Source: Actinomycetota bacterium (GTDB lineage: Bacteria > Actinomycetota > AC-67). From it: a stretch of 64,000 nt of DNA. The stretch is from assembly GCA_044866075.1 (NCBI GenBank), contig JBIOTQ010000115.1, forward strand, positions 10,607 through 74,606, given 5' to 3'. The notes under the pieces were generated by a model. The model was not told where the DNA came from and ran no database searches. It saw only the letters and a program-made list of their open reading frames with translations. The position numbers and the translations under genes are program-made. Positions 9,437 to 35,108 of this stretch are shown here, piece by piece; within the stretch, counting starts at the first letter, position 1; the number at the start of each line of letters is the position of its first letter.

Positions 9437-10480
9437 ATGGCCGGCGAGCTCGCGCCCTGGCAAGAGCCCGTCCGCGGAGGCTACCCCGACCCGCGCGGTT
9501 TCGGGCTCCCCGGACTGGAGAGCCTCCGCGCCTACTTCTCGGGACGCGGTTTGATCCCGCCGATCTCGCGCCTGACCGGCATGTTGCTGCGTGAGGTCGA
9601 CGAGGGGTACGCCGTGTTCGAGATGCAGGCGACAGGATGGTTCCTCTCCTCCCAGAACCAGATCTCGGCCGGCGCCTTGATGATGCTCGCCGACGGATCT
9701 TTCGGCTGCTCGCTGCTAACGGCCCTTCCGCCGGCGACGCCGTACACCACCGCCGAACTGTCGATGAGCTTTCTCAAGCCGTGCGCCGCCGAAGGCACCG
9801 TCCGGGCGATCGGACGGCTGTTGCATATCGGTGACCCCCTGGCCCTCACCGACGTCTGGGTCGAAGACGCACGCGGCGAGCGCGTCGCACACGGAACCTC
9901 GACGCTGATGGTCCTGCCGGCGATCGAAGGCATCGAGCTCATCTCACCCGAGGACCTCCCTAACCTCGAACAGCCCACCTACGAGACGCCCGACCCCTTC
10001 GAGCGCGCACCGATCGGCGAGACCATCCCCTGGGACGAGTGGCGCACGATGCCCGGCGTGGAGATCCTGCGCCGCCAGATCAAAGGCGAGCTGCCGCAGC
10101 CGCCGATCCACTACCTCACGGGCATGACGCTGCAAGACGTCTGCGAGGGCTCCGCGCTCTTCACGATGCCGGCCTCGGAGTGGCTCACGAGCCCGTTGCG
10201 CACCGTGCAGGGCGGCGCGGTGGCGATGCTCGCGCACGCGGCGCTCGCGACGGCGGTGACCTCGACGCTCGAGGCCGGCAGCGCGTATCGCCCCGTCGAC
10301 GTGAAGGTGAACTTCCTGCGACCGGTGTTCGCCGACGGGACGGACCTCGAGGCGCGCGGCACCGTGACCCACCGCGGACGCACGCTCGCGGTCGCCAACG
10401 CCGAGGTGACCGGGGCCGACGGCAAGAAGGTCGCGACGGCGACAGGCTCGACGATCATCCTCCCCGAGCGGAGGGACTGA
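9437..10480 (+). CDS. tandem hotdog-fold (PaaI-type) thioesterase domain protein
   Basis: Two repeats of the PaaI/4HBT-like fold (…QNQISAGALMMLADGSFGCS… and …TVQGGAVAMLAHAALATAV…). Confidence 0.7.
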   Translation: MAGELAPWQEPVRGGYPDPRGFGLPGLESLRAYFSGRGLIPPISRLTGMLLREVDEGYAVFEMQATGWFLSSQNQISAGALMMLADGSFGCSLLTALPPATPYTTAELSMSFLKPCAAEGTVRAIGRLLHIGDPLALTDVWVEDARGERVAHGTSTLMVLPAIEGIELISPEDLPNLEQPTYETPDPFERAPIGETIPWDEWRTMPGVEILRRQIKGELPQPPIHYLTGMTLQDVCEGSALFTMPASEWLTSPLRTVQGGAVAMLAHAALATAVTSTLEAGSAYRPVDVKVNFLRPVFADGTDLEARGTVTHRGRTLAVANAEVTGADGKKVATATGSTIILPERRD

Positions 10481-21452: not shown

Positions 21453-23822
21453 CTATCGACTGAAGCGGATCACCCTTCGCGTGAGGGCCGCTCCGATCAG
21501 CAGAGCTGCTCCGAGCGCGATGGGAGCGCTCCCCACGCCCGTGCCAGGCAGCTTCTCCCCCGACACATTGGGCTTCGGTTGCACCTTCGGTTTGGTTGTC
21601 TTCGTGCCGAGCACCCGCGTTCCTGCCGCGACCGTCGTGTCGACGCAGCAGAGGCCGTCGACGACGATCGGCGAGATGCCGAGCTCCTCCTCCACGTTCG
21701 TGATCGGCAGACTCGCGCTCTTGTTCCGCGACAGGCTGAAGACGGAGAAGCTCTCGAGGACCGACGTGTCGCTCGGACCGCCGACGACGTCGCGCGGGAC
21801 GCGGATCTCCCAGTGGTCGGGCGCACCGCCGGTGCCTTTCACGAGGCGCCCGGTGACGGAGGTTCCGCCGTTCGGCGGAGCCGGGTACTCGATGACGTGC
21901 GGGAAGCAGCCCGAAACCGAGCACAACTCCACCGACCGCGCCGCGCCGGCGAAGAAGAGCGGATCCCCGTCCCCGACCTCGACGGCCGCGTAGTAGATCG
22001 GATCGCGCTTGCCTGTGGCGGAGTCGATCGGCTCGCCGACCCAGCGCACGACGTAATCGACGGCGCGCGCGCCCGTCGCCGACAGCGCGTTCGCCGGCGC
22101 ATCGAGAGAGGACACGGCGATACGGAAGACTAGGTTCCCGCCGTCGCGTGAGACGAGCGCTTCGCGGAGGTCCATCTCCGGGACGGCTTCGCCCCCATAG
22201 ATGGGATCGAACGCCGCGTCCTTGGCGCGGCCGCTGATCGACGCGCCTCGCGCGGAGGGGGCACCGATGGGCTTCCCGAGCAAACCGATGCCGCCGTTCT
22301 GGCGCGCGAGCGTCACGACCGGCGCTCCCCGGTGATCGACGACGCCGTCGACCGGCGTCGGGATCTGCGTGTCGGTCCCCGGGATCACTTGGGCCAGCTC
22401 GTTGGACGTGTCGTCGTAGACGATCACGACGGCGCCGTCCCGCGGGTCCATCGTGACGGCGAAGAAGTCGGCGAGGTTGCGATTGCCTTGGATCGCGATG
22501 CAGCCGGTCCCCTGGAAACAGATCGTGCCGTAGTGCATCGGGTGACGGGTCACCTTCACCTGCTGCCTCGTCGGGCTCGTCGTATCGGCATCCGAGACCA
22601 TCGATTCGAAGACGTCCCACGCTTGGTGGACGTCTTCCCCTTCGGGATCGTGCGCCGCGTCGTCAGTCCCGTACCAGACCACGGCGAGGCGTCCCTTCGC
22701 GCCCGCCACGGCCCACGGCATCACGTTGGTGTTCGCCGGAGCCGACGACAACTTCACCGGCTTGGACCACCTGGTCCAGTTCGACGAAGCTTTCGAGTAC
22801 GAGTAGTAGATCTGCCAGGCGGCGGGAAGCTCGCCGCTGGGTGTGCCTTCCGGCGAAGTCGTCGCCCACACGACGTAGACTGTGCGTGCTTTGTCGATGG
22901 CGACGACCGGGAACAGGTTGCCGGCGTTGATCTGATTGGCGGCGTCGTCCTGTTCCGGATACTCCGCGACCTTGATCAGTTTCGCCACGCGTAGCGCCGG
23001 GTCGTCGAGCTTCTGTGGATCGCGCGTCCGGATCAAGAGCCCGATGTCTCTGGAACTCGAGTAGTTGACCGCTTCGAGGACCGCGCCGGTCGCCTGGTCG
23101 ATCGTGATGGAGCCGTTCTCACCGACCGCCGCCGATAGCGTTGTGTCTGCGTACTTTACGCCGTCGGTCGAATGCGTCGCCGAGTCGCACGTCAGCTGGT
23201 TTTGGGCCTCGATGTAGTCGGAGGCGCAACTGGTCGCGGCGAGCGCCTCGGCGTATGTGAGGTACGTGACGGGGAACGGACCCTTGTAGCCGGTGGCCTT
23301 GCGAACCGCCGTCGGGTTTGGCGGGTCCCACATCGTCAGCCACTGCCGGTCGTATCCGTTGATGTTGTCGAGACCCTTCGCGAAGACGCCCGACTCCATC
23401 GTCTTGGTCTTCGGGTCCCAGCTCGCGACCTTCAGCGTCGCCAATGCGGCGAGGTCCGCGTAAGAGGCCTTTCCGTTGCGGTCGATGGCGACGTCCGTGT
23501 CGCCGCCGCCGGGTCCCAGGATCGTCGTCACCGAATCGTCCGCCGAGGTCGCCGCCGTGTCGTGAAGTGGCTTGAAGACGCGCCCGTCTGTCGACATCTC
23601 CCAGAGGCTTCGTTGCGTTCCGGTCCCCCACGGACCGTGCACGTACATCGTGCCGTCCCGAGCGATGTCGACTTTCGGCTCGCCGAAGGTGTGGATCGGA
23701 TCGACGATGACGGCGCTGCCGAACGTCGGGGGCGCCTCCGCGGCGGGCGCGGGCCCAAGCACGAAGAGCGGCAGCGCCACGGCGGCGACGGAAACGAGCA
23801 CAGCGAAGCGATTCCGGAACAT
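21453..23822 (-). CDS. LPXTG-anchored secreted cell-surface protein with BNR/sialidase-like beta-propeller repeats
   Basis: N-terminal signal peptide. AGGAGG RBS 5 nt before the ATG. Repeated S/T-x-D-x-G-x-T-W-type motifs (YYSYSKASSNWTRW, VVWATTSP...). C-terminal LPGTG, then a hydrophobic segment and RR tail (sortase sorting signal). Confidence 0.7.
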   Translation of the reverse strand: MFRNRFAVLVSVAAVALPLFVLGPAPAAEAPPTFGSAVIVDPIHTFGEPKVDIARDGTMYVHGPWGTGTQRSLWEMSTDGRVFKPLHDTAATSADDSVTTILGPGGGDTDVAIDRNGKASYADLAALATLKVASWDPKTKTMESGVFAKGLDNINGYDRQWLTMWDPPNPTAVRKATGYKGPFPVTYLTYAEALAATSCASDYIEAQNQLTCDSATHSTDGVKYADTTLSAAVGENGSITIDQATGAVLEAVNYSSSRDIGLLIRTRDPQKLDDPALRVAKLIKVAEYPEQDDAANQINAGNLFPVVAIDKARTVYVVWATTSPEGTPSGELPAAWQIYYSYSKASSNWTRWSKPVKLSSAPANTNVMPWAVAGAKGRLAVVWYGTDDAAHDPEGEDVHQAWDVFESMVSDADTTSPTRQQVKVTRHPMHYGTICFQGTGCIAIQGNRNLADFFAVTMDPRDGAVVIVYDDTSNELAQVIPGTDTQIPTPVDGVVDHRGAPVVTLARQNGGIGLLGKPIGAPSARGASISGRAKDAAFDPIYGGEAVPEMDLREALVSRDGGNLVFRIAVSSLDAPANALSATGARAVDYVVRWVGEPIDSATGKRDPIYYAAVEVGDGDPLFFAGAARSVELCSVSGCFPHVIEYPAPPNGGTSVTGRLVKGTGGAPDHWEIRVPRDVVGGPSDTSVLESFSVFSLSRNKSASLPITNVEEELGISPIVVDGLCCVDTTVAAGTRVLGTKTTKPKVQPKPNVSGEKLPGTGVGSAPIALGAALLIGAALTRRVIRFSR

Positions 23823-23924: not shown

Positions 23925-25469
23925 CTACGGCGTTGGTTCCGGCTTTCTCTTCTCGCGACTCCCTCGCCGCGCCGCGCGGTTCAGCGCGTTGAGGAACGCA
24001 CGGGCGCTCGCCTCGACGACGTCCGTCGAGATTCCCCGGCCGGTGAAGCGCTCCCCCTCGACCTCGACCTGAACGGTCACGTCGCCGAGCGCTTCGGAGC
24101 CTTCCGTCACCGCCGCGATGTTGAAGGAATAGAGCCGCGCCTCGGCCGACGTCGCGCGCATGATCGCGCCGAACGCGGCGTCGACCATCCCGTCGCCCAT
24201 CGCGGACTCTTGGATCGTCTCTCCGTTCTTGGTGATCTTCACCGTCGCCGTCGGGGCCAGGTGCGTGCCGCCGGCGACCTGGAGGGACTCGAGGCGATAC
24301 ACCTCCTCGACGGTCTGGATCTCGTCGACCACGATCGCTTCGAGGTCCTTGTCGGTGATCTGGATCTTGCGATCGACCAGCTCCTTGAAGCGCGCGAACG
24401 CGCGGTTCAGCTCTTCCTTGCCGAGCTGGAACCCCATCTCCTCGAGCGTCTTCGAGAAAGCGTGCCGGCCGGAGTGCTTCCCGAGGACGATCTTGCCGCC
24501 CTCGACGCCGATGTCCTCGGCCTTGATGATCTCGTAGGTCAGCCGGTCCTGGATCACGCCGTGCTGATGGATGCCGGACTCGTGCGCGAACGCGTTCTCG
24601 CCCACGATCGCCTTGTTGCGCTGCACCGAGTAGCCGGTCAGCAGCGAGACGAGACGCGACGTACGCGAGAGCTCCTTTGTGTTGATGTTCGTCTCGACGC
24701 CGAGTAGGTCGTGGCGCATCTTGATCGCCATGACGACCTCTTCCAGCGAGCAGTTGCCGGCGCGCTCGCCGATCCCGTTGACCGCGACCTCGACCTGCCG
24801 CGCGCCCGCGCGGACTGCTTCCAGTGAATTCGATACCGCGAGCCCGAGGTCGTTGTGACAGTGCACGGACACGACCACGTCGGCGAGCTTCGGGACGGCC
24901 TTGTAGCACTCGCGGATCAGCTCGCCGAAGTCGAACGGGATCGCGTAGCCGACGGTATCGGGGATGTTGATCGTCGTCGCGCCGGCGTTGATCGCGGCCT
25001 CGACGATCTGGAAGAGGAACTCGGGCTCGGTGCGCGTCGCGTCCTGCGGCGAGAACTCGATGTCCTCGCAGTAGCCTTTCGCGCGCTGGACGCCGTTGAT
25101 CGTCTGCTGGAGGATCTCGTCCTCGGTCGCGTTCAGCATGTACTTGCGGTGGATGTCCGAGGTCGACAGGAAGACGTGGATGCGCGGCTGGCGCGCGTGC
25201 TGAACGGCCTCCCACGCGCGGTCGATGTCCATGTCGTGCGCGCGCGCGAGCGCCGCGATCGACGGGCCCTTGATGTTCTGGGCGATGGCGCTGACCGCTT
25301 CGAAGTCCCCTGGAGAGGTGACGGGGAAGCCGGCCTCGATGATGTCGACGCCGAGCCGGGCGAGCTGCTCCGCGATCTCCAGCTTCTCTTTGACGTTGAG
25401 ATTGATCCCTGGCGACTGCTCGCCGTCCCTCAGCGTCGTATCGAAGATCCGTACGCGGTTATCGCCCAT
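23925..25469 (-). CDS. leuA: 2-isopropylmalate synthase
   Basis: [17 protein letters not shown]... HMGL-like domain plus the LeuA dimerisation/regulatory C-terminus. ATG at 25469 is preceded by GGAGGAGG; the track start at 25514 is TTG. Confidence 0.9.
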
Positions 25470-25515
25470 CTCCAACCCCTCCTCCGTGTCCTGTTTCGGC
25501 ACTTTTCCCGCCAAC

Positions 25516-25543
25516 TAAAAAACCTCTCGGATCCCGAGAGGTC
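25516..25543 (-). terminator. intrinsic terminator-like hairpin + U6 in the leuA 5' leader (putative attenuator)
   Basis: Minus strand reads ACCTCTCGG-gat-CCGAGAGGT followed by TTTTTT, about 50 nt upstream of the leuA ATG. It is nearly identical to the element upstream of the ilv operon at 34947..34976. Confidence 0.5.
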
Positions 25544-25709
25544 GCGCGCACGCCAGAAAGGCGAGCGCGCCGTCAAAGCAGGAGGAGCGCCGACCGATAA
25601 GCCCTCGAAGTCGTCCTGTCGCGGGGATTCTGTCAGAGGGCGTTGGGAGTGTCAACGAGGTTCTGGGGAGTGGATGCGGGCGCCCGCCGAAGCTAGGGTC
25701 CTCAGGAGA

Positions 25710-26108
25710 ATGAAGACCCTCCGCGTCATCCGCTCCGTCGCGACTATCCGCACGGTTATCGGATTCGCTCTGACCTTCAAAACGGGCGAGCTTCTCCGGA
25801 TCACGGTTCCGGACGCCGAGCCGACCGGACCACTCTTCCTCTTCGCACGCACGGTCGGGATACGCGACCTGATCTTCGGTTTGGGAGCGCTGATCGAGTC
25901 TCTCCAGGATTCCGATCGCGTTGATCGCTGGCTCTGGCTCTGGCTCGCGAACGAGGCGGCCGACGTGGTCGCAGGAGCGCTGGCGGCAAAGCACATCGGG
26001 CCTGCGGGCGCCGCCGCTGCAGCGGCCACTCCTCTCCCATTCGTGGCCGCCGACATCTGGGCGCTGCGCCAGCGCTCGATCGCCGCAAGATCGGCGCAGC
26101 CCGCGTAG
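25710..26108 (+). CDS. small hydrophobic membrane protein (hypothetical)
   Basis: ATG at 25710 preceded by AGGAG (5-nt spacer). 132 aa, 3 to 4 predicted TM helices. The annotated 417-aa ORF is an extension antisense to leuA. Confidence 0.45.
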   Translation: MKTLRVIRSVATIRTVIGFALTFKTGELLRITVPDAEPTGPLFLFARTVGIRDLIFGLGALIESLQDSDRVDRWLWLWLANEAADVVAGALAAKHIGPAGAAAAAATPLPFVAADIWALRQRSIAARSAQPA

Positions 26109-26121
26109 ATCGCGCGCGGCT

Positions 26122-26643
26122 ATGCGGATCGTTCCCACGGACGCCCTCACAGCGCGCGAGCTCGCCGCGCTCAAGTCGATGCTCGAGGATGCGTACGGCG
26201 AGCCGTTCGTCGAGGACTGGGACCACGCGCTCGGCGGAACGCACTTCCTGATCGAAGAAGACGGCGAGCCGGTGAGCCACGTCTCCGTCGTCGAGCGCGC
26301 CCTGGAGACCGATGGCCGAACTCTCCGCACCGGCTACGTCGAGGCAGTCGCCACCAAGAACGACCGGCGGCGGCAAGGCCTCGGGAGCCGCGTGATGGAG
26401 GCGGCAAGTGAGCACATCCGTGGGGAGTTCCAATTAGGCGCGCTCGGGACCGCCGAGTTCGACTTCTACGCGCGTTTCGGCTGGGAAAGATGGCTCGGGC
26501 CGACCTCCGTTCGGGTGGACGACCGAGTTGAGCGAACGCCGGACGAGGACGGCTACGTGATGATCCTCCGAACGCCGGCGGCGCCCGATCTCGATCTGTC
26601 AAGGCCGATCAGCTGCGAGTGGAGACCCGGAGACGTCTGGTGA
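26122..26643 (+). CDS. GNAT-family N-acetyltransferase
   Basis: MRIVPTDALTARELAALKSMLEDAYGEPFVEDWDHALGGTHFLIEEDGEPVSHVSVVER...RRRQGLGSRVMEAA is a GNAT core. Confidence 0.7.
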   Translation: MRIVPTDALTARELAALKSMLEDAYGEPFVEDWDHALGGTHFLIEEDGEPVSHVSVVERALETDGRTLRTGYVEAVATKNDRRRQGLGSRVMEAASEHIRGEFQLGALGTAEFDFYARFGWERWLGPTSVRVDDRVERTPDEDGYVMILRTPAAPDLDLSRPISCEWRPGDVW

Positions 26644-26650
26644 TCGACGT

Positions 26651-28225
26651 CTACTGCAGTGTGATGAACTTCGCGTCTTTCGCTTCGGAGCCGTCGGCGA
26701 GCTCTTTCAGCACGTCGTTGTCGATCGGTTGATCGACGGTCAGGCACATCAGCGCTTCGCCGCCCTTCTCTTGACGGCCCACGCGCATGTCGGCGATGTT
26801 CACGCCGCAGCGGCCGAGGATCGTGCCGATCGCGCCGATGACGCCGGGACGGTCGTCGTAGCGCAGGAAGCACATATACGGGCCCGGCGGAAAGTCGACC
26901 TCGAAGTCGAGGATGCGCACGAGCCGCTCCTCGTTACGTTTGCCCACGAGCGTTCCGGCGACGGCCGCGCGCTCTCCCGCCGAGATCTCGATCGCGTTCA
27001 CGTAGTCGCGCGACATCGCGCTCTTGGTCTCGGCGACTTCGATCCCGCGCTCGGTCGCCAGCAGAGGTGCGTTCACGAACGTCACCGGCTCGTGGACGAC
27101 GTTCGCGAACATGCCCTTCAGAGCCGCGAGCGTCAGCACGCGCGTGTCGTGGTCGGCGATCGAGCCCTGGTACGAGAACTGGACCTCCTGCACGTTCCCG
27201 CCGGCGAGCGCGGTGAAGATGCGCCCGAGTTTCTCAGCGAGCGGCATGAACGGCCGCACGACGTCGGACAGCTCGCGGCCGGCCTCCACGTTGACGGCGT
27301 ACGGGGCGAGCTCCCCCCGGAGCGCCAGCAGCACCTGCTCGGCGATCGACGCGCCCGCCTTCGATTGCGCCTCCTCGGTCGACGCGCCAAGGTGCGGCGT
27401 CAGGACGACCTGGTCGAGGTCGAAGAGCGGCGAGTGGCCCGGCGGCTCCTTCGCGAACACGTCGAGGGCGGCGCCGGCCAGCCGGCCGCCTTTGATCGCG
27501 GCTGCGAGCGCGTCCTCGTCGACGATCCCGCCGCGCGACGTGTTCACGATCCGCGCCGTGGGCTTCAGCAGCGCGAGTTGCTCGGCGCCGATCAGCGCGG
27601 CGGTCTCCGAGGTCTTCGGCAGGTGGATCGTCACGAAGTCCGCGGCGCGCAGCGCGTCGTCGAGGGTCGGCGCCAGTTCCACGCCCATCTGCCCGGCGCG
27701 CGCCTTGGCGACGTACGGATCGAACGCGACGACGCGCATCCCGAAGGCCAGCGCGCGCTGCGCGACGAGCGTTCCGATGCGGCCGAGGCCGAGGATCGAC
27801 AGCGTCTTGCCATGCAGCTCGACACCCTCGAAGCGTTCGCGCTCCCAGCGGCCGGCCGCGACCGACGCGTTCGCAGCCGGGATGTTCCGTGCCTGCGACA
27901 GCAGCAGCGCGATCGTGTGCTCGGCCGCGGAGAGCACGTTCGATTGCGGCGCGTTGACGACGACGATCCCGTGTCGCGTCGCCGCGTCGACGTCGACATT
28001 GTCGAGACCGATCCCGGCCCGGCCGATCACCTTCAGGTTCGGCGCGCGCTCGATCAGCTCGGCGTCGGCCTTCGTCTGCGACCGGATGATCAGCGCGTCG
28101 TACGACGCGATCTGCTCGAGCAGCTGCTCGCGCGTGAGGTCCGTCTTGACGTCGACGGTGACCTCGGTGCGGAGCCGGTCGAGACCGGGCTCGGCGATCG
28201 GCTCGGCGATGAGGACCTTCATCAT
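26651..28225 (-). CDS. serA: D-3-phosphoglycerate dehydrogenase (with C-terminal ASB/ACT regulatory domains)
   Basis: MKVLIAEPIAEPGLDRL... 2-hydroxyacid-DH fold plus an ACT domain at the C-terminus. ATG overlaps the upstream aminotransferase stop (ATGA). Confidence 0.9.
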   Translation of the reverse strand: MMKVLIAEPIAEPGLDRLRTEVTVDVKTDLTREQLLEQIASYDALIIRSQTKADAELIERAPNLKVIGRAGIGLDNVDVDAATRHGIVVVNAPQSNVLSAAEHTIALLLSQARNIPAANASVAAGRWERERFEGVELHGKTLSILGLGRIGTLVAQRALAFGMRVVAFDPYVAKARAGQMGVELAPTLDDALRAADFVTIHLPKTSETAALIGAEQLALLKPTARIVNTSRGGIVDEDALAAAIKGGRLAGAALDVFAKEPPGHSPLFDLDQVVLTPHLGASTEEAQSKAGASIAEQVLLALRGELAPYAVNVEAGRELSDVVRPFMPLAEKLGRIFTALAGGNVQEVQFSYQGSIADHDTRVLTLAALKGMFANVVHEPVTFVNAPLLATERGIEVAETKSAMSRDYVNAIEISAGERAAVAGTLVGKRNEERLVRILDFEVDFPPGPYMCFLRYDDRPGVIGAIGTILGRCGVNIADMRVGRQEKGGEALMCLTVDQPIDNDVLKELADGSEAKDAKFITLQ

Positions 28226-31028: not shown

Positions 31029-32027
<999 letters not shown>

Positions 32028-32031
32028 TCCC

Positions 32032-32556
32032 TTACGCCCCCTTCTCCGCAAGGCGGAGCGACTTCTCGGCGATGCCGCGGTCGCCGCGCGCGAGCGCGAC
32101 GAGCCCGGTGCGCACGAACTCGCGGATCCCGTACGGCCGCAACAGATTCGTCATCGCCTCGAGTTTGTCCGGCGATCCGGTCGCTTCGATCGTCAGCGCG
32201 GCCGGCGCCACGTCGACGATCTTCGACCGGAAGATGTCGGCGATCTCAACGATCTGCGCGCGTGTGTCGGCGTTCGCCTTCACCTTGATCAACAGAAGCT
32301 CGCGCTCGACCGACGCTTCCTTCTCGAGCTCGACGATCTTGAGGATCGGCACCAGCTTGTTGAGCTGCTTCACGACCTGCTCCAGCGGCTTGTCCTCGAC
32401 GTTGACCACGATCGTCATGCGCGAGACGTCGTCGATCTCGGTCGGACCGACCGCCAGTGAGTCGATGTTGAAGCCGCGTCGTGCGAACAGCCCGGCGACG
32501 CGCGCGAGGACACCCGGCTTGTTCTCGACGAGGACGGACAGCGTGTGCTTGGCCAT
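32032..32556 (-). CDS. ilvN: acetolactate synthase small (regulatory) subunit
   Basis: [40 protein letters not shown]... ACT domain. ATG overlaps the ilvB stop (TGATG). Confidence 0.9.
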
Positions 32557-34310
32557 CAGATGATCGCCTCCGGGGTGTCGACCAGGATGTCCTGGTGCGC
32601 TTTCTCGTACTCGGGCCCCAGGATGATGTCGTCGTTCGACGCGCCGGCCGGGACCATCGGGTAGCACTTCTCTTCGGGGTCGCAACGGAAGTCGATCACG
32701 ACGGTGCGGTCGTCAATCTCCGTGGCTTTGCGGATCGTCGCCTCGACCTCACCGGGGTTCTCGCAGCGCAGGCCGATCGCGCCGTAGGCCTCGGCGAGCT
32801 TCACGTAGTCGGGAACCTCGTAGCCGAACTCGACGGCCGAAAAGCGCTTCTCGTAGAAGAGCTCCTGCCACTGGCGGACCATCCCGAGGAACGCGTTGTT
32901 GATGATCGCGATCTTCACCGGGATGTTCTCGGTAGTCATCGTGGCGAGCTCCTGGCACGTCATCTGGAAACAGCCGTCGCCGTCGATCGCCCAGACGGTC
33001 TCGTCGGGCCGGCCGACCTTCGCGCCCATCGCTGCGGGAACGGCGTAGCCCATCGTGCCGAGGCCGCCCGAGTTGAGCCACGTGTTCGGCCGCTTGAAGC
33101 GGATGTACTGCGAGGCCCACATCTGGTGCTGACCCACGCCGGCCACATACACGGCGTCGCCCTTCGAGATCTTGCCGATCTGCTCGATGACGTACTCCGG
33201 CTTCAGCTTGCCGTCCGGCTCTTGCGTGTACATGTAGGGGTACTTCTTCTTCCAGGCCATGACCGTCTTTGTCCACTCGGGATACTCCGGGCGGCCGCGC
33301 TCCTCGATCATCTGCTCGAGCGTCTCGTTGAGGTCGTGGATCACGTTGCGCGCGTCGCCGACGATCGGCACGTCGACCGGGCGGTTCTTACCGATCTCTG
33401 CCGGGTCGATGTCGGCGTGGATGATCTTGGCGCTCGGCGCGAACGTGGCGAGCTTGCCCGTCACGCGGTCGTCGAAGCGCACGCCGAGGGAGACCAGCAG
33501 ATCCGCCTTCTGCATCGCCGTGACCGCCGTGTAGTTGCCGTGCATGCCCGGCATGCCGAGGCACAGCTCATGGTCGTCGGGGATGCCGCCGCGGCCCATC
33601 AGCGTCGTCACCGTCGGGATCCCCGTCAGCTCGACCAGGCGCCGGAGCTCGTCGGCCGCGCCGGCCCGGATGATGCCGCCGCCCGCGTAGATGACCGGCC
33701 GCTGCGCGGACAGGATCAGCTTTGCAGCTTCGCGGATCTGCTTCGGGTTGCCTTTGACGGTCGGACGGTAGCCGGGGAGATCGACCTCCTCCGGGTACCA
33801 CCACGCCATGTCGGTCTGCAGGACGTCCTTCGGGATGTCGACGAGGACCGGGCCCGGCCGCCCGCTGCGCGCGATGTGGAACGCTTCGGCGATCGTTTGC
33901 GGGATGTCCTGCGCGTCGAGGACCAGGAAGTTGTGCTTCGTCACCGGCATGGTGATGCCGGTCGCGTCGCATTCCTGGAACGCGTCGCCGCCGACCGCCC
34001 AGGTCGGCACCTGGCCGGTGATCGCGACGATCGGGACGGAGTCCATGTACGCGCTCGCGAGCCCGGTGACGAGGTTCGTCACGCCGGGGCCCGACGTCGC
34101 CATGCACACGCCGACCTCGCCGGTGGCTTGCGCGTAGCCGTCGGCGGCGTGCGCGGCGCCCTGCTCGTGCCGGCAGAGGATGTGGCGGATCGGCGAGTCG
34201 AGTATCGGGTCGTACGCCGGGAGGATCGCGCCGCCGGGGATCCCGAAGATGACCTCGACCCCCTCCTGTTCCAGCGAGCGGATCGTGGCTTGGGCTCCGG
34301 TGATCTTCAC
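32556..34310 (-). CDS. ilvB: acetolactate synthase large subunit
   Basis: [34 protein letters not shown]... TPP enzyme. GTG at 34310 preceded by AGGAGA; the track start at 34481 is an upstream extension. Confidence 0.9.
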
Positions 34311-34332
34311 GGCTGCATCACTCTCCTGATCT

Positions 34333-34929
34333 CTAGTTCGGCGACATTCGTTCGGACGTGCGGGCGACCTCGCGGATGACATCGTGCGCTTCGGCGACGC
34401 GCACGCCGACCGCGGCGAGATCTGCCAGGTTGACGCGGTGGGTCTCGTCGTTGCTCGCGGCCAGCGCGTCGGCCACGGCAACGATGTCGTAGTCGAGGCC
34501 GATGGCGTCGTACATCGTCATCCGGGGGCAGTTCGGCAGGTTGACACCGACGACGACGATCTTGGAGACGCCGGCCCGGCGCAGCAGCAGATCGAGCTCG
34601 GTGAACGCGAACGCGCTGAAACGCTGCTTCACGACGACCGGCTCGCCGGGCTCCGGCACCAAGCGGTCGACGATCTGCTGGCCCCAGGTGCGCTCGACCG
34701 TGAACCCGCGGTCGGCCTGGAACGCGGGCACCCGGAAGCGCTCGACGTCCCACGTGTCGGCGCGGTACGAGCGGACCACGTGGATGACCGGCTCCCGCGC
34801 CTCACGGAACGCATCCAGGATCGCGTTCATGACCGGCGCTTTGTGCGCCGCGTCCGGCATGAACGCCTTCCCGTCGGCGTGGGCGAGGTCGTTCTGCATG
34901 TCGATGATCAGAAGAGCGGTGCGGCCCAT
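34333..34929 (-). CDS. isochorismatase-family (cysteine hydrolase) protein, first gene of the ilv transcription unit
   Basis: [15 protein letters not shown]...[14 protein letters not shown] isochorismatase-like D/K/C motif. GGGAG RBS before the ATG at 34929. 22 nt upstream of ilvB. Confidence 0.75.
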
Positions 34930-34946: not shown

Positions 34947-34976
34947 GAAAAAACCTCTCGGCTTCCGAGAGGTTCA
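34947..34976 (-). terminator. attenuator terminator (hairpin + U-tract) between the ilv leader peptide and the operon
   Basis: Minus strand reads AACCTCTCGG-aag-CCGAGAGGTT followed by TTTTT, 29 nt downstream of the leader-peptide stop and about 20 nt upstream of the first gene's start. Confidence 0.6.
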
Positions 34977-35002
34977 CGCGCACGCCCGAGGCGAGCGCGT
35001 GG

Positions 35003-35053
35003 TCAGATAACGACTACGAGAACGCTCGCGCTACGCATCTCCTCGGGCTTCAT
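35003..35053 (-). CDS. ilv operon leader peptide MKPEEMRSASVLVVVI
   Basis: 16 codons ending in Val-Leu-Val-Val-Val-Ile before TGA. Preceded about 33 nt upstream by TTGACA, so the transcript is probably leaderless or has a very short 5' UTR. Confidence 0.6.
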   Translation of the reverse strand: MKPEEMRSASVLVVVI

Positions 35054-35108
35054 GGTAGGCGCTATCGTGCCAGCCCGCCCGGAAGGTGTCAACTGGCATC
35101 CGCGCAGG

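Follow-up and report, generated by a model that had tools for sequence, protein, structure and literature searches.

In Mycobacterium tuberculosis, a ribosome at the stop codon of the upstream open reading frame (uORF) of ilvB1 masks a hairpin that prevents termination, and replacing LVVI in that uORF by AAAA gives a low, uninducible expression (PMC13236596). In Streptomyces lividans, the leader peptides leuL and ilvL are reported to be transcribed leaderless (PMC8079986). A control of another kind has been described for the 'tug-of-war' riboswitches, which work by steric competition for the RNA polymerase exit channel and in which a short spacer and a stable upstream structure favor read-through; the study in question does not mention leader peptides (bioRxiv 10.64898/2026.06.17.733018). 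Here we analyze two similar elements, found upstream of leuA and of the ilv operon in a stretch of 64,000 nucleotides (nt) from an Actinomycetota bacterium (contig JBIOTQ010000115.1; hereafter, the window). We consider it likely, with a probability of about 80%, that the two elements are paralogous leader-peptide transcription attenuators of branched-chain amino acid (BCAA) genes, acting on near-leaderless transcripts. Their anatomy, their conservation and a single-base difference in one of them come directly from the sequence, from which we infer leaderless translation, ribosome stalling and a possible steric step.

Each element, on the minus strand like the genes that it precedes, comprises a promoter, a mini-open reading frame (mini-ORF), a hairpin (A) and an intrinsic terminator (T). 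A sequence-only reading of the window had pointed out the near-identity of about 60 nt upstream of leuA (25575-25517) and of the ilv genes (35005-34948), and this was fully borne out: the two minus-strand sequences that it quoted are present exactly as written, and the overall identity is about 84%, with 51 identical columns out of 61 (84%) in the alignment between the stop codon and the U-tract. For the promoter and the ORF, the figures are 57% and 54%, respectively. All four stem arms, namely A5′ (CGCGCTCGCC), A3′ (GGCGTGCGCG), T5′ (ACCTCTCGG) and T3′ (CCGAGAGGT), have the same letters in both copies, and the differences are confined to loops and junctions. The terminator pattern occurred twice in the 64-kb window, against 0.00 occurrences expected from 100 shuffles, and a covariance model (R1) built on 17 homologous leaders gave the two copies scores of 72.1 and 71.7 bits, with the third-best match at 14.9 bits.

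In the leu copy, a promoter scan returned the site TTGACA-17 nt-CAGAAT (10 of 12 matches, with a TG before the -10 box; one site versus 0.0 in shuffles). The TTGACA, correctly placed by the sequence-only reading, occupies 25650-25655 and is kept in L001, L002 and L039. The extended -10, TGaCAGAAT (25627-25635), ends 9 nt before the position of the start codon, the intervening letters being CCCCGCGAC; therefore, there is no space for a Shine-Dalgarno (SD) sequence. The mini-ORF that follows (25573-25617) has 14 codons plus the stop, AGG ACG ACT TCG AGG GCT TAT CGG TCG GCG CTC CTC CTG CTT TGA, and would encode MTTSRAYRSALLLL if its first codon were ATG, as it is in contigs from the same strain and in orthologues. 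The run of four Leu codons, which includes the rare CTT, directly precedes the TGA (25575-25573), as had been noted, except that its true coordinates (25587-25576) differ by one base from those first given.

Hairpin A of the leu copy (25544-25570) begins 2 nt past the stop codon and was predicted by RNAfold to contain 10 GC-rich pairs around one U-U mismatch, with a free energy of about -20.6 kcal/mol. It is followed, with a spacer of 0 nt, by terminator T (25517-25543; -15.6 kcal/mol), which reads GACCTCTCGG-gat-CCGAGAGGTT and continues into a U-tract (T6); its assignment is supported by a terminator scan, by the folds and by compensatory changes. The regulated gene would be leuA (23925-25469, ATG at 25469-25467), encoding 2-isopropylmalate synthase (NCBIfam NF002086, 770 bits with a cut-off of 532). 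An N-terminal extension of LeuA from an in-frame TTG at 25514 was considered and rejected, because a stop codon interrupts it in L002 and the frame is lost in L004, L005 and L009.

The ilv copy has the same organization. Its promoter (35064-35092) consists of TTGACA (35092-35087), a 17 nt spacer and TGg-CACGAT (35072-35064), ending 10 nt before the ATG; it was read from the sequence and fell below the threshold of the consensus scan, so that its support is weaker than that of the leu promoter. The mini-ORF (35003-35053) starts with ATG and has 16 codons, encoding MKPEEMRSASVLVVVI; this region is identical in L047 and L001. The regulatory codons, GTT CTC GTA GTC GTT ATC (VLVVVI, 35023-35006), stand right before the stop. 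Hairpin A (34975-35001; RNAfold, -19.7 kcal/mol) has the same stem arms as in the leu copy, a tcg loop, a start 1 nt past the stop and a spacer of 0 nt to the terminator (34948-34974, with its U-tract), which was identified by the terminator scan, the pattern count and the folds. The designation 'ilv' needs some qualification: an ilvB-ilvN-ilvC operon is indeed present, but the first gene downstream of the leader encodes an isochorismatase-family hydrolase. Based on NCBIfam and Pfam matches, the regulated unit (31029-34929) would comprise the hydrolase gene (34929-34333), ilvB (about 34310-32556, with the start taken from gene calls on contig L046), ilvN and ilvC (32051-31029).

A scan of species-representative genomes anchored on leuA returned eleven close relatives, all of them metagenome-assembled genomes of uncultured Actinomycetota, with LeuA proteins 79-96% identical to that of the window. 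Nine of the eleven (L001, L002, L004, L005 and L007-L011) carry an ATG-started mini-ORF with a Leu run just upstream of leuA, the encoded peptides being MTTSRVYRSALLLL, MTSTKTYRSALLLL, MSGNLLLL, MNGSLLLL, MFTNLLLR, MSQNLLLT and MRNLLLT, each followed by a stop. A tenth orthologous leader, MTETKIYRSALLLL, came from a metagenome scan (contig L039). This metagenome-wide scan, which used the exact terminator stem, retrieved ten contigs, nine of which have the stem behind a mini-ORF with a BCAA run; in eight of these, ilv-operon genes lie downstream of the leader, and in one (L039) an ORF without family match, while the tenth contig (L043) carries an unrelated low-GC terminator. Every match of the covariance model that scored above 23 bits lies behind a BCAA-run mini-ORF and, with the exception of L039, precedes identified BCAA genes; two matches located inside coding sequences (L004:6976 and L009:7477) were discarded.

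Across the 20 homologous leaders, the specificity is cognate, with Leu runs before leuA and Val/Ile/Leu runs before the ilv operon or ilvB. The latter include the Acidimicrobiia matches L034 and L018, whereas in L012 a peptide run rich in Leu and Ile (L..L..LIL) precedes the gene for citramalate synthase. These Acidimicrobiia leaders (L012:8085-9875, L034:7500-9345 and L018:400-560, with citramalate synthase, TIGR00977, 590 bits, or ilvB downstream) follow the same design, with A-T spacers of 4-5 nt and a hairpin A weaker than T. The claim of the sequence-only reading that two BCAA operons share one attenuator design with amino-acid-specific codon runs thus holds, as the two copies are sisters and relatives keep both an ATG-started ORF with a Leu run before leuA and one with a Val/Ile/Leu run before the ilv operon or ilvB.

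Some of these genomes depart from the arrangement of the window. In L003, leuA lacks an attenuator and directly follows serA; a single upstream leader peptide, MGFKDRTGLLVVVT (L003:2638-2740; ~9900-10001), combines Leu and Val codons, which suggests one sensor for a fused ilv-serA-leuA unit. The element is likewise missing upstream of leuA in L006. In L039 (560-1180), the leu-type leader and the same A and T hairpins are followed not by leuA but by two overlapping ORFs of 107 and 111 amino acids, neither of which has a Pfam or NCBIfam match. These ORFs may represent a frameshifted hydrophobic protein, and the Leu attenuator could have here an additional target outside biosynthesis.

The geometry of the promoters is consistent with a near-leaderless transcript, a trait that the sequence-only reading had not remarked on. 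In 15 out of 17 leaders, a promoter of the form TTGAC(A/G), 17-18 nt, (TG)n-NANNNT has a -10 box that ends 7-11 nt ahead of the ATG, a spacing consistent with a 5′ untranslated region of about 0-4 nt and with no room for an SD sequence. The regulatory runs are enriched in rare codons: CTT accounts for 2.7% of the Leu codons in seven genes of the window, yet it occurs at least once in 11 out of 11 leu leaders, and of the four Val codons in the ilv leader three are GTT or GTA, which represent 3.8% and 1.9% of the Val codons, together 5.7%. In the leu leaders, a distance of 14-17 nt separates the first Leu codon from the base of hairpin A downstream; in the ilv leaders, where the run is longer, its first codon is 19-22 nt away from A.

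The codons that immediately precede the runs are also similar, encoding Y-R-S-A in the leu copy (25599-25588) and M-R-S-A in the ilv copy (35038-35027), both on the minus strand. The 5′ half of the ORF has diverged freely in the leu leaders, yet TATCGGTCGGCGCT is kept at the nucleotide level in four species, so that the pre-run segment may be under a constraint, acting either on the RNA or on the nascent peptide.

In 17 of 17 leaders, hairpin A starts 0-2 nt past the stop codon, and its position is the same in all 20 homologues. Fifteen leaders have a near-leaderless promoter of the type seen in the window, and in all of them the A-T spacer is 0-2 nt (ten leaders with 0 nt, including both window copies, four with 1 nt and one with 2 nt). 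In each of these fifteen, the stability of A (-17 to -22 kcal/mol) exceeds that of T (-14 to -17 kcal/mol), and A has a GC-rich base where T has A-U and G-U pairs at the bottom. Terminator T itself, with a stem of 10-11 pairs followed by T6 in the terminator scan, shows compensatory changes across homologues (UA to CG or the reverse in five sequences, CG to UA or the reverse in four).

A second trait absent from the sequence-only reading is that no antiterminator overlaps the terminator. Hairpins A and T have no nucleotides in common, and both form in every predicted fold, whether or not a ribosome masks part of the RNA. We searched 17 leaders for an overlapping antiterminator, and duplexes between the ORF and T5′, A3′ and T5′, A5′ and T3′, or the codon run and T3′ were not above shuffled controls; the A3′:T5′ pairing was even depleted (mean z +1.4). 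Two further candidates were rejected. The first was pairing of T5′ with a purine-rich segment 'M' of the ORF (UUCGAGGG in leu, CCGAGGAG in ilv), which appeared in constrained and stepwise folds of the naked RNA, and whose two arms would be separated by a ribosome stalled between them; shuffled ORFs did as well in 16 of 17 leaders, and the leaders of 7-8 codons lack the pairing. The second was a '1:2' hairpin between the ORF and A5′, only mildly enriched in long leaders (z -0.7 to -2.0), absent from short ones, less stable than A in leu (-14.4 versus -22.2 kcal/mol) and close to A in ilv (-17.6 versus -20.0). Since no alternative helix exceeded the shuffled controls, competition between base pairs cannot explain antitermination. 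The feature that is conserved in place of a competing helix is the contact between A and T.

The arms of the terminator have a regularity of their own. The 3′ arm is SD-like in all leaders (GAGAGG, GGAGGG or GGGAGG; in the window, for example, at 25530-25522), the 5′ arm is anti-SD-like (ACCUCU or ACCCUU) across distant lineages, and GTTG often follows the U-tract. This may only reflect ascertainment and GC-rich stems, although the polarity is constant.

The working of the attenuators may be pictured as follows. A sigma-70-type promoter would start the RNA at the AUG or 0-4 nt before it, and a ribosome would translate the mini-ORF of 14 (leu) or 16 (ilv) codons, in which the cognate run lies directly before the stop. 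When charged tRNA is ample, the ribosome would reach the stop codon, where it would occlude about 13 nt downstream, i.e., the whole 5′ arm of A; T would then form and end transcription ahead of leuA or of the ilv genes. Under a shortage of the amino acid, the ribosome would stall on the run and leave A free to fold. The place and the role of A would in this respect be those of the antiterminator in the experimentally tested ilvB1 attenuator of M. tuberculosis (PMC13236596). Folded A, abutting T, would hinder the closure of T in the RNA polymerase exit channel, as in a tug-of-war, and allow read-through.

This last step, in which A serves as a ribosome-gated steric antiterminator sharing no nucleotides with T, is a tentative proposal, and we regard the odds as leaning against it. 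Several observations speak against the attenuator model or restrict its steric step. RNA-only folding has T forming in every ribosome state. In the tug-of-war study, the more stable terminators were little affected by a plain hairpin upstream (bioRxiv 10.64898/2026.06.17.733018), and the terminators here are moderately strong (about -15 to -16 kcal/mol). The mutagenesis of the ilvB and leuA leaders of S. coelicolor, in the account of it cited in PMC1262725, gave results unlike classical attenuation. Finally, five more distant leaders have spacers of 4-6 nt and an A weaker than T, so that the steric step cannot be universal.

The leu copy of the window presents an additional problem, in that codon 1 of its mini-ORF (25617-25615) is AGG and, as the sequence-only reading had stated, no ATG, GTG or TTG is found in frame between the Leu run and an upstream TGA. 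This TGA lies inside the promoter. We looked for the same strain in other assemblies by exact-protein look-up, using the small divergently encoded neighbor protein and the adjacent acetyltransferase (look-ups with LeuA and with the aminotransferase found no contigs). A contig from the Logan assembly of SRR30692719 (L045) covers positions 25324-26770 (1,447 nt) and departs from them at one base only, 25616, where it has ATG. A contig from an unrelated project (L049, SRR23419226) shows two differences in 1,974 nt, one of which is again ATG at 25616. A further contig from SRR30692719 (L047) shows 100% identity with the window across 2,910 nt that include the ilv leader, and one from SRR30692713 (L050), otherwise 100% identical, terminates at 25617, one base short of the variant site. 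Comparison with related genomes, which had been suggested as a check, gave ATG in 10 out of 10 orthologous leu leaders; where the window reads GACAGGACGACTTCGAGG, the closest relative reads GACATGACGACTTCGAGG. The missing start is therefore a single T-to-G change in the middle base of the start codon (minus-strand G, plus-strand C at 25616, in place of T and A, respectively).

Among the explanations first offered for the missing start, the retention of the terminator module alone does not agree with an ORF that is otherwise intact. A sequence error comes closest, as the T-to-G change has no counterpart in two other assemblies of the strain, but the change may also be a real allele, and between the two the balance is near even. 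We would give slightly less than an even chance to AGG being purely an assembly or consensus error in the source of the window, with ATG in the organism. In favor of an error, this is the sole difference in 4,357 nt with respect to the SRR30692719 contigs, and the second project likewise reads ATG. On the other hand, consensus substitution errors are rare, true strain-level single-nucleotide polymorphisms occur nearby in other samples, and the end of L050 one base before the site is how de Bruijn-graph contigs would be expected to behave at a polymorphism.

With AGG in place of ATG, the leu mini-ORF of the window is untranslatable as written, and, if real, the allele would be a natural knockout of the sensor. 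As there would be no leader translation, A would be free to fold, its ORF:A5′ competitor being much weaker in the leu copy. The tug-of-war mechanism would then predict constitutive read-through and a derepressed leuA, and a classical attenuator would predict super-attenuation. An ATG/AGG pair in one natural population would thus discriminate between the two models and show the system at work without leader translation.

Another explanation would be that the two-hairpin module binds a common trans-acting factor, protein or RNA, which controls both operons, the mini-ORFs being incidental or secondary. The stems are identical between the paralogous copies even though the loops differ, no RNA-only antiterminator was found, and a protein was proposed by Seliverstov et al. 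for the LEU element, a leader found upstream of leuA (PMC1262725). We nevertheless judge such a factor improbable, given that the stems change with compensation across species, the sequence of hairpin A varies widely and the loops are not conserved. What is conserved (the cognate run, the rare codons, the ATG at the start of the transcript and the distance from the stop codon to A) points to the ribosome as the sensor.

There is very little to recommend a non-canonical start, by which the leu leader would still be translated from AGG, or from the ACG that is its second codon, and the attenuator would work normally. The ORF is otherwise intact and the ACG is in frame, but the promoter geometry leaves no SD sequence. 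Moreover, in mycobacteria it is an AUG or GUG at the 5′ end of the transcript that directs leaderless translation (bioRxiv 10.1101/834739), which makes AGG or ACG an unlikely substitute. A special start, as envisaged in the sequence-only reading, is also needless, because ATG is used in the other assemblies of the strain and in all ten orthologues. There is no call for a new initiation mechanism, and the start-codon puzzle comes down to a single-base difference in an otherwise standard leader.

Equally hard to sustain is a translational attenuator of the LEU-element or polycysteine small-ORF type, in which the Leu run would pair with the SD region of leuA and a stalled ribosome would set that region free. 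In the window, CUCCUCC is complementary to a GGAGGAG upstream of leuA (duplex of -18.1 kcal/mol), and the LEU element also has two internal helices between such arms. However, in 10 leu leaders the pairing was on a par with that of composition-matched shuffles (z -1.8 to +1.8, mean about 0) and thus not above chance. Complementarity of this kind is absent from the ilv copy, and a canonical terminator with its U-tract is conserved between the two arms. The structure is therefore not a LEU element.

It is scarcely credible that the element is a generic repeat, or an ordinary terminator present at the two loci by coincidence: one of the ten metagenome matches was indeed unrelated (L043), but the window holds two copies only, and the other nine matches, like all those of the model above 23 bits, are preceded by a BCAA-run mini-ORF, so that the element, restricted to BCAA contexts in everything searched, is not the common genome-wide repeat that had been raised as a possible refutation.

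As for the surrounding genes, the isochorismatase-family hydrolase (PF00857, E 2.6e-37) encoded at 34333-34929 on the minus strand, between the Val/Ile leader and ilvB-ilvN-ilvC, also comes first in the ilv arrangements of L003, L035, L044 and L046-L048. This arrangement is kept in at least four related lineages. Directly downstream of leuA lies a 789-amino acid ORF (21453-23822, minus strand) with no NCBIfam or Pfam match, in a region with about 81% nucleotide identity in L001. Divergent from leuA are a 132-amino acid ORF without family match (25710-26108, plus strand) and a GNAT acetyltransferase gene (26122-26643, plus strand). These two genes separate serA from the leu leader in the window, whereas in L005, L007 and L010 the leader directly follows serA.

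Should the steric mechanism be correct, this would be the first leader-peptide attenuator of non-overlapping architecture. No overlap between the terminator and the hairpin that a ribosome could mask is seen in any of the 20 leaders, which come from two actinobacterial lineages. From a steric mechanism it would follow that overlapping helices are not required for ribosome-mediated attenuation; programs that search for attenuators rely on them, and many leaders of this kind have possibly been missed. The mechanism would also account for a 20-year-old remark on 'components missing' in actinobacterial ilvB and leuA leaders, and would provide a testable explanation for the paradoxical mutagenesis results in Streptomyces.

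In the enterobacterial leu, ilvGMEDA, ilvBN and trp attenuators, as in the elements described here, a leader peptide with a cognate run is followed by an intrinsic terminator before the operon. However, the enterobacterial peptides are led by an SD sequence and their RNAs form overlapping 1:2, 2:3 and 3:4 helices, whereas here there is no SD sequence and the antiterminator and terminator share no segment. Rfam covariance models (Leu_leader, T-box and others) gave no match in the window at the gathering score, and the best matches of a permissive search (E of 0.16 or more) were to unrelated small RNAs.

The LEU element (Seliverstov et al. 2005, PMC1262725) is similar in having a Leu-codon uORF before leuA and two helices between the run and the ribosome-binding site. 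However, this element, which precedes leuA in most Actinobacteria, is defined by a base stem that pairs the Leu run with the SD sequence, plus a pseudoknot, and has no terminator; here, that pairing is at chance level and a terminator is present. With the tug-of-war riboswitches (Bushhouse, Fu and Lucks 2026), our elements have in common a stable structure 0-4 nt upstream of the terminator and no sequence overlap. Both window copies have the architecture described for that class (a structure less than 5 nt from the terminator, without overlap), and their spacing and stability fit. The upstream structure of the riboswitches, though, is a ligand-bound aptamer, while here it would be a plain hairpin, whose folding the position of the ribosome would allow or prevent.

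The attenuator of M. tuberculosis ilvB1 (PMC13236596, 2026) is likewise actinobacterial and has BCAA codons just before the stop of the uORF, a hairpin that can be masked by a ribosome at that stop, and an intrinsic terminator with a U-tract before the regulated gene. Its antiterminator and terminator are described as mutually exclusive folds, whereas here A and T coexist in every predicted fold; in addition, in the present lineage the same module also occurs at leuA. The leuL and ilvL leaders of S. lividans, S. coelicolor and Corynebacterium encode peptides of 12-15 residues with Leu or Ile/Val/Leu runs at the 5′ end of the leuA or ilvB transcript (PMC8079986; PMC1262725), an arrangement much like the one predicted for the leaders of the window, and in Streptomyces ilvL is also followed by hairpins and a U-rich stretch (PMC8079986). 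In contrast, Streptomyces leuL1, which precedes leuA, has no typical intrinsic terminator (PMC8079986), while leuA in the window has a canonical one, sister to that of the ilv operon. Attenuators of this type are thus already documented in Streptomyces, Corynebacterium and Mycobacterium, and the non-overlapping architecture could be the sole new aspect of the pair described here, which most resembles the leaderless ilvL and leuL leaders of actinobacteria and the ilvB1 attenuator of M. tuberculosis.

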